Assembly: GCA_965207885.1 (NCBI GenBank)
Contig: OZ242311.1
Coordinates: 6,016,001 to 6,080,000 of the forward strand
Direction of reading: 5' to 3'
Source: Candidatus Latescibacterota bacterium
GTDB lineage: Bacteria > Latescibacterota > UBA2968
Length of the DNA: 64,000 nucleotides
Position 1 is the stretch's first letter. Each line of letters starts with the position of its first letter. The position numbers and the translations under genes were made by a program. The notes under the pieces were generated by a model that was given only the letters and a program-made list of their open reading frames with translations, made no database searches and was not told the origin of the DNA. Positions 352 through 5,220 of this stretch are shown piece after piece.

Positions 352-3075
352 GTGATGCGCTCTGTATATTTTCCTCTTCTGATCTGTCTTTTGCCGCTTC
401 AGGTACTGGCAAGTTCGCCGCCCTATCAAAAGGTCGCCGATGTTTCGCTTGCTGGTTCGCTTTCTCTCCAGCATTATCGCCTCGCCAATGGCCTTCAGGT
501 TGCGATTGTGGAGGACGATACCAGACCTGTTGTGACATGTCAAATCGCCTATCGCGTGGGGTCTTCTCACGAAGCACCCGGCAGGCAGGGCATGGCGCAT
601 CTGGTCGAGCACCTGGCAGTGGTTCGCTCATTCCCAAAGTCATTCTACCTTTTGGACGCGCCACACGCCAATGCCAGTACGTCGAAAGATGGTACGAAAT
701 ACTACGCCACGGTTCCCAAAGCGCAGCTGGATACGCTGATCGCCTGTTTTGCCTGGGGTATGACGCAGTTTGATGTTTCGCAGGAAGAATACGATCTCGA
801 AAAAGAGGTCGTTCTGGCTGAATGGGCGCGCAGCGCCAATAGTGCGCGTCGGCTTTTGTATAAAAAGATATATGCCCGCATGTTTGCAGGGCATCCCTAT
901 CGGTACGATATTCTGGGTCATCGTGATACGATTAAGACTTTTACTCTGGATCAAGCGATTGTATTTCACAGGCGTTATTACGTGCCAAACAATGCCTGTC
1001 TTGTAATTGTCGGCGATGTGAAAGGGGCTGATATTTTACCCGTTGTAGTTCAACATTTTGGGGAAATTCCAAAGCGCTATGGGTTTATTCACGACGATAT
1101 TGATACGCTGGATGTCACATCTGTCTCCCAGGATTCCATTCAATATACAACTGCGTTGCATTCTTCTGTTTGGGGTGTTTGGCATATTCCGACAGATACG
1201 CATCCGAATTTTTATCCTTTGTATTTGTTTGATAAAGCTCTTTTTGAAGGTGAATATTCTCTTGCTCGCCAAAGGCTAATTGGTCCGGGGAAAGTTCTCG
1301 GGGTAAATTCCTATTTTCTCAATATGCGCGATAAAGGGCTGTTTTATTATATAGCTGACTTACCCTCGGGTGCGCGTTATGACTTTGAGGCAATGCCGCG
1401 AATTATTCAAACAGCTGTCGATTCTTTGTCTGAGGATCATCTTTGGCTGGCGAGAAACGAAGCGCGTAAGATTTTATATCGCACAATAACCAGTCAGTCC
1501 CGTCTGGCAAATATGATCTCTTCAGGATTCATTCGCACCAGTGATCCCGCCCATCGTCTCAAGTGGATGCAGAATCTCGATGGCATTACGATAGCGGATG
1601 TCAAGCGGGTGGTGAAGCAATATCTTTTGGACCAGCCGCCCCGCACCTTTGTCCTGATCTCTTTTGAGGAGCCAGCACCATCATGGAACGTGTGGCTTTA
1701 TGTGGGTATTGTGTGGGTTCTCGTGGGATTGGGAGGATACTGGTACTGGCGACGGCGAGTACTTGCGGTTGGATTATTTGCAGTCCTTTGCAATATTTCG
1801 GCAGCAGATGCAGAGATCCCCAATCACAAGATATATTACGTGCAGGACACGCGCGTGCCGCAAACGCGGCTTTCAATGAGGTATTATACAGGAGGGGATC
1901 TGCAGGAGACAATGGATACACGTGGTTTGTCTTTTGCGTTTTTTCGCCTGAATGATCTGGCATTACACGGAGAAGATAAAAAAGAGATGGACCGGCTTGG
2001 CGCAGAGTTCTGGTTCAATATTTCCGATCAATATGTTACCGTTAACCTGACCGTGTTTAGCGAAAATTTGGATGCGGCTTTGAGACGCCTGAAGGTGATG
2101 ATGAGAGATCTCACATTCTCTAAAGAACTGCTGAACAGGGAAAGGGCGCGGATCATAGACGATTTTGAGGATTACGTTGATGACCATGAGGTAACAGAGA
2201 TTTTTCGCTATCACCTGTACAAGTCTGACAGAGACCGGCGGGAGGGCACGCGCACAGCACTTGAAAATTTGACAGCACAGGACTTGCAACAATTTTGGAA
2301 TCAAACCTTGCGCGCAAAAGTCCTCTATTTTAGAGTGACTTCTGATCTGAGTAAGTCGGAAATTGAACGCAGTTTGCGCGTGATGACCCACAACCGGGTT
2401 CGAGATGGGTTTTCGCCACGTCCCCGTCCAAAACGCAAAGAGATTACGGGTAAGCGCGCTTTAATTTTGCCAAGCCCCCATCCGGCTGATTTTTGCAATT
2501 TGATAACAAATGGCTTGCCTCGCACAAATGAGGATTGGTTTGCACAAGCGGTTTTGGTCAATGCGCTAAACCGTCTGTTGTTCATTCGGCTTCGCGAACA
2601 AAAGGGCTGGTGTTATTCGGCTGGTGTGAGTATTCAGGAATGGACATCACCGCCAATACTGCATTTTGGGGCTAATCCTCGAAGTGTTTATACTTCTCAA
2701 CTTGTTCCCGAGATGTTTCGGTTGATTAACCATTTTTTGTCCGAGCCAGATTTTTGGGCGCAGGTGGAGAAAGGTCGCGAAAGGCTCAAGCGGGCGTATC
2801 ATTTGCAACTCGGTCCGCAGCCCAGACTCAGTCAGCAAGTGCGCTACGATCGCGATGGGGTGCCCGCGCTTTCGCTGGAGGAATACGAATCGGCTATTGA
2901 TCGGGTGACGGAAGAAGATATTCGCCGCGTTTTCAAAAGGATGCTAAAAGGTCAGAACAAATTGCCATTGCTGATGCTTATTTATGGGAATACTGACAGC
3001 ATTGAGACCGTATTGGATCACGAGGATATCAAGGCGAGGACGACGGTTTTTGATATTCAGACTCTGCTTGAATAA
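352..3075 (+). CDS. M16 (insulinase/pitrilysin) zinc peptidase; active and inactive halves joined by a membrane segment
   Basis: Signal peptide; YRVGSSHE..G.QGMAHLVEHL (HxxEH); NASTS..GTKYY; YYVPNNA.LVIVGD; C-terminal half has RLREQKGWCY. Confidence 0.85.
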   Translation: MMRSVYFPLLICLLPLQVLASSPPYQKVADVSLAGSLSLQHYRLANGLQVAIVEDDTRPVVTCQIAYRVGSSHEAPGRQGMAHLVEHLAVVRSFPKSFYLLDAPHANASTSKDGTKYYATVPKAQLDTLIACFAWGMTQFDVSQEEYDLEKEVVLAEWARSANSARRLLYKKIYARMFAGHPYRYDILGHRDTIKTFTLDQAIVFHRRYYVPNNACLVIVGDVKGADILPVVVQHFGEIPKRYGFIHDDIDTLDVTSVSQDSIQYTTALHSSVWGVWHIPTDTHPNFYPLYLFDKALFEGEYSLARQRLIGPGKVLGVNSYFLNMRDKGLFYYIADLPSGARYDFEAMPRIIQTAVDSLSEDHLWLARNEARKILYRTITSQSRLANMISSGFIRTSDPAHRLKWMQNLDGITIADVKRVVKQYLLDQPPRTFVLISFEEPAPSWNVWLYVGIVWVLVGLGGYWYWRRRVLAVGLFAVLCNISAADAEIPNHKIYYVQDTRVPQTRLSMRYYTGGDLQETMDTRGLSFAFFRLNDLALHGEDKKEMDRLGAEFWFNISDQYVTVNLTVFSENLDAALRRLKVMMRDLTFSKELLNRERARIIDDFEDYVDDHEVTEIFRYHLYKSDRDRREGTRTALENLTAQDLQQFWNQTLRAKVLYFRVTSDLSKSEIERSLRVMTHNRVRDGFSPRPRPKRKEITGKRALILPSPHPADFCNLITNGLPRTNEDWFAQAVLVNALNRLLFIRLREQKGWCYSAGVSIQEWTSPPILHFGANPRSVYTSQLVPEMFRLINHFLSEPDFWAQVEKGRERLKRAYHLQLGPQPRLSQQVRYDRDGVPALSLEEYESAIDRVTEEDIRRVFKRMLKGQNKLPLLMLIYGNTDSIETVLDHEDIKARTTVFDIQTLLE

Positions 3076-3199
3076 ACGACCATTCGCAGAGCGAATGGCT
3101 TTAGTGTTCGGTCACGAACACTAAAGGAGGCGAAGTATCGTCGTTTTTCGTGAGCGGTAAAACCTTTACCGCGAACAATAATTAATTTCTTCTATACTC

Positions 3200-3228
3200 T
3201 TGACGTTGTTTTTGTAGTTGGGTATGTT
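3200..3228 (+). promoter_or_regulatory. Sigma70-like promoter for small RNA 1
   Basis: TTGACG (3200-3205), 17 nt, TATGTT (3223-3228). Confidence 0.6.
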
Positions 3229-3234
3229 TTATGT

Positions 3235-3311
3235 ACAGCGGGTTGCCTCAGCATTTCTGTTTATTTCCTCCCTCCCGATAAATAGAGTGCTGTTGGCAGC
3301 CCGCTTTTTTT
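3235..3311 (+). ncRNA. Putative small RNA 1: long hairpin with C-rich loop UUCCUCCCUCCCG, ending in a U-tract
   Basis: Stem AGCGGGTTGCC/GGCAGCCCGCT, CAGCATT/AGTGCTG and CTGTTTAT/ATAAATAG with G-U pairs on the + strand; own promoter; T-run after 3304. Confidence 0.6.
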
Positions 3312-3312
3312 A

Positions 3313-3341
3313 TTGACAGGGTTATTTTTGGAATTTATTTT
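3313..3341 (+). promoter_or_regulatory. Sigma70-like promoter for small RNA 2
   Basis: TTGACA (3313-3318), 17 nt, TATTTT (3336-3341). Confidence 0.55.
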
Positions 3342-3347
3342 GCTTTT

Positions 3348-3404
3348 GTAGCAGAATTACGAACCTTTGAGGGTGTCGGGAGGGAGCCCTCAAAGGCTTT
3401 TTTT
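3348..3404 (+). ncRNA. Putative small RNA 2: hairpin with G-rich loop GUCGGGAGGGA, ending in a U-tract
   Basis: Stem CCTTTGAGGGT (3364-3374)/GCCCTCAAAGG (3386-3396) followed by a T-run. Confidence 0.55.
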
Positions 3405-3414
3405 GTTTATAAAT

Positions 3415-3612
3415 AAAAAAGAGGCGCTGGTTGGGAGGGTATAACCAACGCCTCAAGGGATGTTGCATGGTACCGGATTAGACGCATTTGTACAGAAAAG
3501 AGTTCCAAGAAAGAGTAACGGCGTTGACTCAGCCGGGGTATAGGAGTCAACGCCGATATTTTTGCGACACGCTTTGTCGCATATTCTTTTACTTTTAAAG
3601 GCTGGAAAGGTT
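3415..3612 (-). ncRNA. Putative minus-strand multi-hairpin RNA 3 with UAUACCC-containing loops
   Basis: Hairpins at 3421-3454 (G-U pair and U-tract on the minus strand, loop AUACCCUCCC), 3519-3555 (loop CUAUACCCCGGCU) and 3563-3581. The 5' end is uncertain. Confidence 0.4.
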
Positions 3613-3711
3613 CCCGAATGGTGTGATTTTTTGTTGGCTCAAACAAGTTTTAACTTTTTGTGTTATGGTGTATATTGTTGATTCTCTAAAAGATGTGACC
3701 ATGGAGATGAT

Positions 3712-5220
3712 ATGGTAAATAAAAAAATAGAACGCTGGGGACTGTGGCTCGGTCCTGTGATTGGGCTGAGTGTCACGGTTTTTGGAGATCTCAAGCCGGG
3801 ACATCCCGAGGTGACACATACGGCAGGTGTGGCCTGCTGGATGGCGGTTTGGTGGATGACAGAGGCCGTGCCTTTGGCTGCGACGGCACTGTTGCCCGTG
3901 GTGCTGTTTCCCCTGCTGGGTATTATGAGCGGGCAAGAGGTTGCGCCACTTTATTTGAATCATATTATTTTTTTGTTTGTCGGTGGTTTTATGGTGGCAT
4001 TGGGCATGCAACGCTGGAATTTACACCGGCGAATTGCCCTGCGCTTGCTGCTCCTTTTTGGAGGGTGTCCCCGGTGTATTCTGACGGGTTTTATGCTGGT
4101 AACGGCGTTTTTGTCCATGTGGATTTCCAATACGGCGACAACGATGATGATGGTGCCTATTGCGCTTGCAATTGTGGTTAGAATGGAAGAGCAGGGTGTG
4201 GCATCTGGTTCTTTTGGCACGGCGGTGTTTCTGGGGGTGGCTTATGCGGCTTCAATTGGTGGGAGTGCAACGCTTGTGGGTACGCCGACCAATTTGTCTT
4301 TTGTGAGGATTTTATCGATTCATTTTGCAGAGGTTCCCGAGATTTCATTTGCGATGTGGTTTGCTTTTGCTCTGCCTCTGGCATGTGTGATGCTCGTTTG
4401 TGCGTGGGGTGCGCTTTGCCTTGTTTTTGGCATTCGCGGTCGCGGCGATGATATTGATCTGAGTGTGGTGCGCGCGCAATATGCCGAGTTGGGGCCGATG
4501 TCATTTGCCGAGAAGGTCGTGCTGGCCGATTTTGTATTGTTGGCGCTGTTGTGGTTGTCGAGACGCCCCATTCAAATTGGCGATTGGACGCTGCCGGGCT
4601 GGTCTCAGTTTTTCGAATCTGGCGGATTGATAACCGATGGGTCGGTTGCTATGGCAATGGCTCTGATTTTATTTGTCGTGCCCGCGCGGGATGGCGCGAA
4701 ATCCAGGGTGATGGATTGGCAAACGGCTGGCAATGTGCCCTGGCATATTGTTTTGCTGATTGGCGGTGGATTTGCTCTGGCAAGTGGGTTTAAGGAGTCG
4801 GGGTTGTCGCTCTGGTGCGCGCAGCAGTTGGAGGGTATGGGGCGCTTGCATCCTCTATTTTTGGTCGGTGGTTTGTGTGTGATGATGACTTTTTTGACAG
4901 AGTTGACTTCCAATACGGCAACGGCAGAGATGTTTCTTCCGGTTTTAGCGGCGTTATCTGTGGCGGTGGGTCTCAATCCATTGTTGCTGATGATTCCAGC
5001 CACGTTGTCGTGTTCTTGTGCGTTTATGTTGCCGGTAGCTACGCCGCCCAATGCAATTGTGTTTGGCACGGATAGAATTTCTATGCGCGATATGGCGCGC
5101 GTGGGCGTGGGGTTGAATTTAATAGGGGCTGTGATGATTACTGCTGCGATTGCTGTTGTTGGTCGCGTTGTGCTGGGTATTGAACTTGGGGTGATGCCCG
5201 ATTGGGCGAAAATTCAATAG
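3712..5220 (+). CDS. SLC13/DASS family sodium:dicarboxylate or sulfate symporter
   Basis: WWMTEAVP, SMWISNTAT, GTPTN, TELTSNTA and AFMLPVATPPNAIV motifs. Confidence 0.92.
   Translation: MVNKKIERWGLWLGPVIGLSVTVFGDLKPGHPEVTHTAGVACWMAVWWMTEAVPLAATALLPVVLFPLLGIMSGQEVAPLYLNHIIFLFVGGFMVALGMQRWNLHRRIALRLLLLFGGCPRCILTGFMLVTAFLSMWISNTATTMMMVPIALAIVVRMEEQGVASGSFGTAVFLGVAYAASIGGSATLVGTPTNLSFVRILSIHFAEVPEISFAMWFAFALPLACVMLVCAWGALCLVFGIRGRGDDIDLSVVRAQYAELGPMSFAEKVVLADFVLLALLWLSRRPIQIGDWTLPGWSQFFESGGLITDGSVAMAMALILFVVPARDGAKSRVMDWQTAGNVPWHIVLLIGGGFALASGFKESGLSLWCAQQLEGMGRLHPLFLVGGLCVMMTFLTELTSNTATAEMFLPVLAALSVAVGLNPLLLMIPATLSCSCAFMLPVATPPNAIVFGTDRISMRDMARVGVGLNLIGAVMITAAIAVVGRVVLGIELGVMPDWAKIQ

Follow-up and report, generated by a model that had tools for sequence, protein, structure and literature searches.

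In Bacillus subtilis, the small RNAs (sRNAs) RoxS and FsrA pair through C-rich regions with G-rich ribosome-binding sites, and RosA, a free-standing sRNA that has a sigma-A promoter and a Rho-independent terminator of its own, sponges both of them through G-rich regions (PMC8216469; this and the other papers are cited here from the available parts of their text). In Staphylococcus aureus, RsaE carries unpaired UCCC(C) seeds and works independently of Hfq, and RsaI, which bears a G-rich sequence, acts on RsaE (PMC9217828). The pairing of a C-rich-seed sRNA with a G-rich sponge is so far documented for these two systems. The alphaproteobacterial Cuckoo or CcsR RNAs occur in paralogous copies, show C/U loops, CCUCCUCCC, that resemble the anti-Shine-Dalgarno (anti-SD) sequence, and depend on RpoHI/HII for their expression (PMC8034643). 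The enterobacterial MicA, RybB and MicL are transcribed from promoters of extracytoplasmic function (ECF) sigma factors and form the repressor arm of the envelope-stress response (PMC4102768). Here, we analyse a 636-nt intergenic spacer (3076-3711) in a 64,000-nt stretch of a Candidatus Latescibacterota genome. This stretch, hereafter the window, corresponds to bases 6,016,001-6,080,000 of a single-contig genome of 6.23 Mb (G000) that is 97% complete. The spacer is a cluster of what are very probably real sRNA genes, in which RNAs with C-rich seeds accompany one RNA, RNA2, with a complementary G-rich loop. That RNA2 is a decoy which titrates anti-SD-like repressor sRNAs is our preferred reading, held at about even odds.

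Work on regulatory RNAs in Latescibacterota (WS3) seems to be lacking: the one paper returned by a full-text search on small RNAs of this group was unrelated. Searching positions 2900-3900 against all 4227 Rfam families (cmscan, E up to 10) gave no match other than six with E values of at least 1.9.

Two adjacent hairpin RNA genes with complementary loops

RNA1 is a predicted sRNA of about 75 nt on the plus strand (3235-3310, predicted ends). A consensus scan places a putative sigma-70-type promoter in front of it (3200-3228), with TTGACG at 3200-3205, a 17-nt spacer and TATGTT at 3223-3228. The RNA folds into an interrupted 30-bp hairpin (3237-3305; -38.9 kcal/mol, z -8.5, none of 200 shuffles as good) followed by a U-tract, as in an intrinsic terminator. 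Its apical loop is UCCUCCCUCCC, the final G and A of CUCCCUCCCGA being engaged in weak closing U.G and U-A pairs. The loop and seed region, UCCUCCCUCCCGA (3266-3278), includes the anti-SD core CCUCC and the sequence UCCCUCCCG, which is the seed of a whole family of RNAs described below. Within the 17-nt promoter spacer (3206-3222), AGTTGGGTA is retained immediately ahead of the -10 box and overlapping it; this holds for genera g8 and g9 too, although the remainder of the spacer differs there. An extended -10 element and the site of a regulator are possible explanations.

RNA2 follows immediately on the same strand. Its predicted sigma-70-type promoter (3313-3341; TTGACA at 3313-3318, a 17-nt spacer and TATTTT at 3336-3341) has 10 of 12 matches to consensus, and its -35 box begins 3 nt past the U-tract of RNA1. 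The predicted sRNA is about 57 nt long (3348-3405, predicted ends) and consists of a variable 5' tail, an 11-14-bp hairpin (3364-3396 here) and a U-tract. The loop, UGUCGGGAGGGAG (3374-3386), carries the anti-seed CGGGAGGGA and, within it, a mimic of the Shine-Dalgarno (SD) sequence, GGAGG. An initial sequence-only reading of this DNA had proposed two tandem promoter-hairpin-U-tract units with unrelated stems. The consensus scan and the folds recover each of these elements in its proposed place, and comparison of the sequences and folds confirms that the stems are unrelated.

The two loops contain the arms of an exact 11-nt inverted repeat, at 3268-3278 in RNA1 and 3376-3386 in RNA2, 97 bp apart. 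The 11-mer occurs once per strand of the 6.23-Mb genome, both times at this locus. The length of 11 nt, as first read, is thus exact for this genome; the complementarity conserved among relatives has a core of 9-10 nt.

Fixed loops and covarying stems in two families

The relatives of the window are Candidatus Latescibacterota or Latescibacteria metagenome-assembled genomes. BLAST shows the RNA1-RNA2 block to be contiguous in 20/20 genomes of the same genus (g1). The exact tandem pattern was also searched over one genome per species in 185,579 species. This search returned 23 stretches, 22 of which have the promoter-hairpin-promoter-hairpin architecture; 21 of these are titled Latescibacterota or Latescibacteria and one 'bacterium'. 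The remaining stretch (L049) has no hairpins and was discarded as a chance match. In all, the tandem pair is found in the window's genus and in three further genera, and our alignment comprises 25 sequences (24 distinct) from four genera and two families.

In this alignment, the flanks diverge around a conserved -35 hexamer and TATGTT-like -10 box of RNA1, and the TTGACA-N17-TATTTT promoter and U-tract of RNA2 are present in all 25 loci, with the -35 box always within 3 nt of the RNA1 U-tract. The loops are nearly invariant. For RNA1, TCCCTCCC is identical in 25/25 sequences and the next G in 24/25; for RNA2, CGGGAG is identical in 25/25 and CGGGAGGGA in 24/25. The anti-seed is also present in six loci of genus g6, which belongs to a different family, and in genome G026, so that G024 is the single exception among all RNA2 loci inspected. 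The core UCCCUCCCG / CGGGAGGGA is accordingly kept in 24 of the 25 tandem loci and across the two families. Conservation of the loop complementarity in relatives, on which the sequence-only reading had staked its proposal, is therefore observed.

The stems behave differently. Double compensatory changes affect 7 of the 21 consensus pairs of RNA1 and 7 of the 14 pairs of RNA2, and none of 500 shuffles reaches the covariation score of either stem. Sliding the stem partners by 1-3 columns lowers the pairing from 96-97% to 19-68%. The combination of fixed loops, free stems and fixed promoters points to trans-acting hairpin RNAs and not to terminators. With near-invariant promoter hexamers and loops and with covarying stems, all three hairpins first noticed in the spacer thus look like independently promoted RNA genes, as first proposed, and not like incidental terminators.

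Covariance models built for the two RNAs (R1 and R2) extend this distribution. R1 finds RNA1 in 19/19 sampled members of the window's genus, and R2 has matches in 19/19 sampled genomes of g1, 15/15 of g6, 2/2 of g7, 3/3 of g9 and 1/1 of g5. We treat as unproven the R1 matches in families f3 and f10, with E values of 0.003-0.01, and we rejected an R2 match in G143 as a stem-only false positive. RNA2 is single-copy in G000, the second R2 match being a plain terminator without the G-rich loop.

A family of RNAs sharing the C-rich seed

An alignment of positions 3405-3730 across 18 relatives brings out two further predicted RNAs on the minus strand. RNA3, of about 60 nt (3414-3475, minus strand), starts with single-stranded ACCAUGCAACAUCCCU and ends with a terminator hairpin (3454-3421; -20.2 kcal/mol, z -6.0) with loop AUACCCUCCC and a U-tract. 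Its putative promoter (3481-3506, minus strand) is made of GGAAC (3506-3502), a 17-nt spacer and CGTC (3484-3481) followed by TAA; GGAAC and CGTCTAA are conserved genus-wide and the spacer is variable. The hairpin at 3421-3454 had already been noticed, with its CCCUCCC loop complementary to the loop of RNA2. Hairpin, loop and complementarity are confirmed, and the hairpin turns out to be the terminator of a separate RNA with a candidate ECF-type promoter of its own. The RNA3 loop is complementary to the RNA2 loop over 7 nt in this genome and over 10 nt (UCCCUCCCGA) in 7/18 distinct same-genus sequences. The 5' motif CCATGCNNCATCCCT of RNA3 occurs in 32/53 genomes of the order, compared with 7 control matches. 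In g6, a homologue of RNA3 was found in 12/15 genomes; all 12 loci were read and show TGAAAC-N16/17-CGTCTAA, single-stranded CAUCCCUCCCGAAAG and a terminator. There, the seed UCCCUCCCGAAAG is located in the single-stranded part and has 9 nt of complementarity to RNA2.

RNA4 is a predicted sRNA of about 70 nt (3507-3584, minus strand), with a small hairpin (3580-3564) and a 12-bp hairpin (3555-3519) that carries the invariant loop CUAUACCCCGGCU. Upstream of it (3590-3614, minus strand), the alignment reveals a putative promoter with an invariant GGAAC (3614-3610), a 16-nt spacer and AGTA, the -10 element being CGTA in the more distant loci L020, L024, L025, L026 and L027. The U-tract is weak here; in the distant loci L012, L025, L026 and L027 the hairpin is directly followed by TTTTT. 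The RNA4 loop has a distinct C-rich seed, ACCCCGG, and can pair over just 4-5 nt with the RNA2 loop, as read from the sequence; a duplex calculation gives -16.3 kcal/mol, but this figure uses stem bases. Since insertions of 0.1-4 kb separate RNA2 from RNA3 in several genomes, RNA3 and RNA4 form a unit separate from RNA1 and RNA2.

RNA5, a paralogue of RNA1 with a long hairpin-terminator, lies outside the window (G000:C1:3223222-3223311, minus strand), where it was found as a second, weaker R1 match. Its loop is CCCCUCCCA in G000 and UUCCCUCCCG in G016, with GGAAC-N16-CGTT upstream as a candidate promoter. It is located between a methyltransferase-like and a CoxM-like gene, in synteny in G000, G016 and G023 (genus g4). 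A second R1 match exists in 17/20 genomes of the genus, among which those of G000 and G016 were inspected. An RNA5-like hairpin with a TGAAAC-N16-CGTA promoter and loop UUCCCUCCCGCC is also present in a g6 genome (G027). A genome scan for hairpin loops CCCTCCC, CCTCCC or GGGAGGG with T-tails gave no convincing further copy.

The promoters of RNA3, RNA4 and RNA5 are presumably of ECF type, an assignment based on their resemblance to consensus promoters such as TGAAAC-N16-CGTA. Upstream of the three RNAs, GGAAC/GAAAC-N16-17-CGT(A/C/T) is conserved in two families with variable spacers. The motif is not enriched genome-wide (61 matches, about 70 being estimated from base composition). G000 has 27 genes with a Sigma70_r2 domain, which suggests a heavy reliance on alternative and ECF sigma factors. 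The promoter motif was sought upstream of these 27 genes and no cognate ECF sigma factor was identified; one candidate at 952 kb, with an anti-sigma-like gene downstream, was dropped, as the GGAAC-like motif upstream of it is not kept in orthologues.

Taken together, RNA1, RNA3 and RNA5 all display UCCCUCCC in their apical loops, and the RNA3 of g6 displays it in its single-stranded part. The seed 5'-UCCCUCCCG-3', which overlaps the anti-SD core CCUCC, is common to RNA1, RNA5 and, in 7/18 relatives, RNA3. The anti-seed 5'-CGGGAGGGA-3' is on RNA2 only, in the loop of its single hairpin. The RNA2 loop thereby has 9-11 nt of complementarity to RNA1, to RNA3 (10 nt in those 7/18 relatives, 9 in g6) and to RNA5 (in G016, g4 and g6). 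The anti-seed RNA is as widely conserved as the seed, and it tracks the seed family across two families of bacteria rather than any single partner. The sequence-only reading had pictured a circuit of three RNAs. Its conserved, promoter-bearing hairpin genes are all there, but a fourth RNA is adjacent and a fifth is located elsewhere. Because RNA2 occurs without RNA1 in g6, and RNA1 without RNA2 in G134, the circuit is better described as a seed family plus one anti-seed RNA than as a closed three-RNA unit.

Cellular context and predicted pairing

SD sequences are in common use in this genome: an SD 4-mer is found at -18 to -5 of 1843/4240 crude start sites, with a sharp peak at -10 to -12, versus 377/4240 random background windows. 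The 3' end of the 16S rRNA is canonical (GGAUCACCUCCUUUCU, i.e. ...CCUCCUUUCU). Neither Hfq (PF17209) nor CsrA (PF02599) has a match in the 97%-complete genome, with control genomes positive for both. The lack of such matches agrees with seeds already exposed in loops, as is the case in Firmicutes.

Pairing energies were calculated for the loops alone, in place of whole-RNA duplexes. The predicted duplexes with the RNA2 loop amount to -26.3 kcal/mol for RNA1, -22.2 kcal/mol for RNA5 and -19.6 kcal/mol for the RNA3 loop. For the RNA2 loop with the 3' end of the 16S rRNA, the prediction is -11.8 kcal/mol.

A candidate decoy circuit and its alternatives

In the circuit that we propose, the C-rich RNAs would base-pair with mRNAs at G-rich ribosome-binding sites and so prevent translation. 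They could do so without Hfq because their seeds are pre-presented in loops. RNA2 would be a decoy (a sponge, or anti-sRNA) that captures the C-rich seeds by loop-loop kissing, and the kissing of RNA1 and RNA2 might spread into the A/U-rich upper stem of RNA1. RNA2 would set a threshold which the stress-induced, ECF-driven RNAs must surpass. The comparative tests that were run all agree with the sponge circuit, which we find plausible; our judgement of it is balanced between belief and doubt. A broader version is much more speculative, and we would sooner doubt than defend it: the linked sRNA/anti-sRNA module might be a threshold filter for an ECF-sigma regulon, of envelope-stress type, of anti-SD-mimicking sRNAs in an uncultured, Hfq-less phylum. 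RNA2 would then descend from an mRNA leader or target site, of which the aldo/keto-reductase leader persisting in g6 may be a trace, and would now be a free sponge. With its -35 box abutting the RNA1 terminator, the output of both RNAs would be coupled at the DNA as well as the RNA level.

Several observations weigh against RNA2 being a sponge. Taken alone, the loop complementarity is weak evidence, as an inverted repeat of at least 11 nt arises in 147/3000 first-order Markov resamples of the 636-nt spacer (about 5%); it rises above chance by lying in two hairpin loops and by being conserved. The covarying loops for which relatives were to be searched are absent: no compensatory change links the RNA1 and RNA2 loops, and all loop variation is one-sided and weakens the pairing. 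The changes are of five kinds, all in terminal or near-terminal positions of the duplex, and are never compensated. They are a U to C at the first position of the RNA2 loop (G036, G024 and g6), a G to A at its last position (L019), the loop GGGAGAGAG in G024, a CCCAA variant of the RNA1 loop in L026, and alterations of both terminal loop positions in L025 and L027 that do not restore the pair. The invariance of the loops may stem from third parties, such as mRNA SD sequences or the 16S tail, and not from each other. In G134 (genus g8, 94% complete), RNA1 is present with no RNA2 downstream and no R2 match. The fold of RNA2 alone is modestly unusual (z -2.2, 6/200 shuffles as good), and its loop may be narrower if two weak pairs form. 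Whole-RNA duplexes, calculated in a way that ignores intramolecular structure, are no better than those with shuffled RNA2 (61/300 and 50/300 as good) and have unrealistic structures.

Contigs from RNA libraries of four studies (X1, X3, X6 and X7; 88-99% likeness), which as assembled contigs cannot show transcript ends or strand, cover the sRNA region and the flanking genes at similar depth; one of them spans the RNA1 promoter, and DNA carry-over or read-through is possible. A scan for the anti-seed 9-mers near start codons gave no set of targets. Among the 23 open reading frames (ORFs) with GGGAGGG-type 8-mers at SD distance, the 20 that were run against Pfam have mixed functions (a sigma factor, a TonB-dependent receptor, DivIVA, dehydrogenases and unknowns) and show no pattern. 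The anti-seed CGGGAGGGA itself shows no genome-wide enrichment, with 26 sites on the two strands versus about 47 estimated from base composition.

The most serious alternative, which we consider rather unlikely, is that RNA2 is no dedicated sponge. It would be an mRNA element, leader or target, or a descendant of one, or else a G-rich regulator in its own right. The C-rich RNAs would have evolved for SD-like GGGAGGG sites, and RNA2 would match these RNAs only by carrying such a site. The six g6 loci read provide its main support. RNA2 has its own TTGACA-N17-TATTTT/TATTAT promoter there, loop CCGGGAGGGA, an extra 5' hairpin GGTATC...GATACC (L061-L063 and L066-L068) and no RNA1 upstream. In 6/6 loci the same aldo/keto-reductase-like ORF follows RNA2 on the same strand at a distance of 35-45 nt, and no obvious promoter intervenes. 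The U-tract is weak, with just 4 T, in 5/6 of these loci. By its layout, g6 RNA2 thus looks like an mRNA leader or attenuator rather than a free sRNA. It could be the 5' leader of a reductase gene, with an attenuator hairpin under the control of C-rich RNAs, and the detached copy in the window's genus may regulate other C-rich sites in trans. The occurrence of RNA2 without adjacent RNA1, in g6 and also in G026, and the lack of compensatory covariation between the loops agree with this idea. We looked in G000 for an orthologue of the g6 reductase: paralogues are many, the best has 44% identity and none is clearly orthologous. On the other side, RNA2 ends in a 7-9-T terminator in the window's genus (20/20), g5, g9 and G036, and in the window no same-strand gene follows it, because RNA2 meets the convergent RNA3. 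It also retains the invariant TTGACA promoter and a covarying stem in which the loop alone is conserved, the signature of a trans-acting hairpin RNA. Moreover, the leader and sponge explanations overlap, since an element that derives from a target could also serve as a sponge.

Three other explanations have to be weighed against the sponge circuit. It is improbable that proteins or the ribosome, and not one another, are the partners of these RNAs, the G-rich loop being a decoy for a CsrA-like protein or for the 16S anti-SD tail and the C-rich loops titrating another factor. The two GGA triplets of the RNA2 loop, its GGAGG mimic, the predicted 16S duplex and the invariance of loops that do not covary would all suit such a role. 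However, no CsrA homologue was found in the genome, RNA2 is a single hairpin with GGA triplets just 4 nt apart, and protein binding would not call for exact 9-11-nt matches to three separate RNAs. Multi-site protein sponges are built differently. That the hairpins are ordinary intrinsic terminators of neighbouring genes with coincidentally complementary loops is very improbable. A U-tract does follow every hairpin, inverted repeats of this length or more arise in about 5% of resampled spacers, and the RNA-library contigs are not enriched over the flanking genes; but the M16 peptidase gene upstream has terminator-like hairpins of its own (3080-3142), ahead of the first unit, and each unit has conserved promoter hexamers. 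Invariant loops on compensatory stems, over 25 sequences and four genera, are the opposite of what terminators show, and the seed is found again at unlinked loci, on RNA3 and RNA5, as well as in another family. Least credible of all, and hardly to be expected, is an element acting at the DNA level, in which the inverted repeats, of 11 bp, would serve as paired binding sites for a protein or would flank an invertible segment (inverton) with the RNA2 promoter. The repeats are perfect and the 97 bp between them enclose the promoter-like TTGACA-N17-TATTTT. Yet the segment has the same orientation in 25/25 aligned loci, the RNA-library contigs, which drop rare variants, contain no strand-switch joints, and seed and anti-seed also occur apart. 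Selection at the RNA level is favoured because both arms are in the loops of hairpins with covarying stems.

Neighbouring genes and other features of the genome

The spacer is located between a gene for an M16 peptidase (352-3075, plus strand, 907 aa) and a gene for a DASS-type transporter (Na_sulph_symp/CitMHS; 3712-5220, plus strand, 502 aa). Right after the stop codon of the M16 gene, four successive stable hairpins (3076-3190; -46.2 kcal/mol, z -6.6), among them a perfect 12-bp stem (3099-3126), may represent a structured 3' untranslated region or stacked terminators. Three ORFs were considered in the spacer: 3218-3316 (plus strand, 32 aa), 3322-3468 (minus strand, 48 aa) and 3407-3646 (minus strand, 79 aa). 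The two minus-strand ORFs have no Pfam match. All three were rejected as genes because they cross promoters or terminators and because relatives have indels of 1, 4 or 6 nt or long insertions inside them.

The RNA-library contigs, which resemble parts of 3190-3720, come from libraries labelled as sponge metagenome (X1) and coral metagenome (X3) and from studies X6 and X7. The sponge and coral matches are consistent with relatives inhabiting marine invertebrate holobionts. Elsewhere in the genome, the region at about 45-110 kb of G000:C1 shares multi-kb segments, 95-98.5% identical and up to 7.7 kb long, with 5.83-5.85 Mb and 6.155-6.207 Mb. These are either recent duplications or strain variants collapsed in the assembly, and they may be the source of the 5% 'contamination' estimate. 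A terminal overlap of the contig was ruled out as the cause of the duplicate matches, which are internal segments. A hairpin with a G-rich loop, AATATC-GGGAGGGC-GGTATT, followed by a T-tract, is present at four sites of G000:C1, near 104,060; 105,290; 578,900 and 6,203,510. All but the site at 578,900 fall within the ranges of the duplicated segments.

Comparison with known systems

The locus provides five candidate sRNA genes with comparative support, which is beyond the reach of prediction from a single sequence. If RNA2 is indeed a decoy, the pairing of C-rich-seed sRNAs with a G-rich sponge is not peculiar to Firmicutes; it would be a recurrent solution in Hfq-less bacteria, here wired to ECF-type stress promoters. 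The tandem arrangement, together with the leader-like form in g6, offers a traceable case of the possible origin of a sponge RNA. The organism is uncultured. Since the RNAs are short (57-75 nt) and the predicted loop-loop contact is simple, the central claim can be tested in vitro and in a heterologous host.

The sequence-only reading had named C-rich-loop RNAs as analogues of the first unit, and these are indeed described, with CCUCCUCCC loops in CcsR (PMC8034643) and UCCC seeds that act on G-rich SD sequences (PMC9217828), in the available text of both sources. The CcsR RNAs share with the present RNAs a long anti-SD-like loop (CCUCCCUCCC here), the existence of several paralogues and promoters of stress-sigma type, which depend on RpoHI/HII there and are putatively of ECF type here. 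The motifs CCUCCUCCC and CCUCCCUCCC of RNA1 differ at one position. As described in that text, however, each CcsR has two hairpins, derives from the 3' untranslated region of a DUF1127 gene and needs CcaF1, whereas RNA1 has a single hairpin and no DUF1127 gene. The consulted part of PMC8034643 does not mention a complementary G-rich partner RNA. With the Rfam models of the cuckoo, ar14 and CcsR families, no match was obtained in 2900-3900 at E up to 10.

MicA, RybB and MicL would be similar if RNA3, RNA4 and RNA5 do lie behind ECF-type promoters, an assignment based here on motif resemblance to a consensus. They differ in being Hfq-dependent and in using 5'-end seeds on porin and lpp mRNAs; no Hfq match is found here and the seeds are in C-rich loops. 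Protein sponges such as CsrB and RsmZ have CsrA or RsmA as partner and multiple GGA loops; here there is no CsrA match and RNA2 is a single hairpin.

The closest parallels are found in Firmicutes. Like RNA1 and its relatives, RsaE and RoxS have unpaired C-rich motifs able to pair with G-rich SD sequences. This is a functional resemblance only, and the RsaE family model has no match in 2900-3900 at E up to 10. RsaI, in the portion of the literature consulted, has an mRNA-targeting region of its own; RNA2 shows no second conserved region. The genes of RsaE and RsaI are not known to be adjacent in Staphylococcus. With RoxS/FsrA and RosA, the locus has in common several C-rich sRNAs and a G-rich partner, predicted here to be stand-alone, that is complementary to more than one of them. 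As reported in the accessible text, RosA is about 229 nt long, has three G-rich regions and is unlinked to RoxS, whereas RNA2, of about 57 nt, has one G-rich loop and, in four genera, lies directly downstream of its presumed partner RNA1. RoxS and FsrA are described there as being under Rex and Fur control; the partners of RNA2 have candidate ECF-type promoters. The RosA system belongs to Firmicutes, and the present cluster, known from its sequence alone, to Latescibacterota, with no sequence or Rfam relationship between them. In its predicted function, the cluster is like the RosA/RsaI-type sponging of C-rich sRNAs, and it stands outside all described families.

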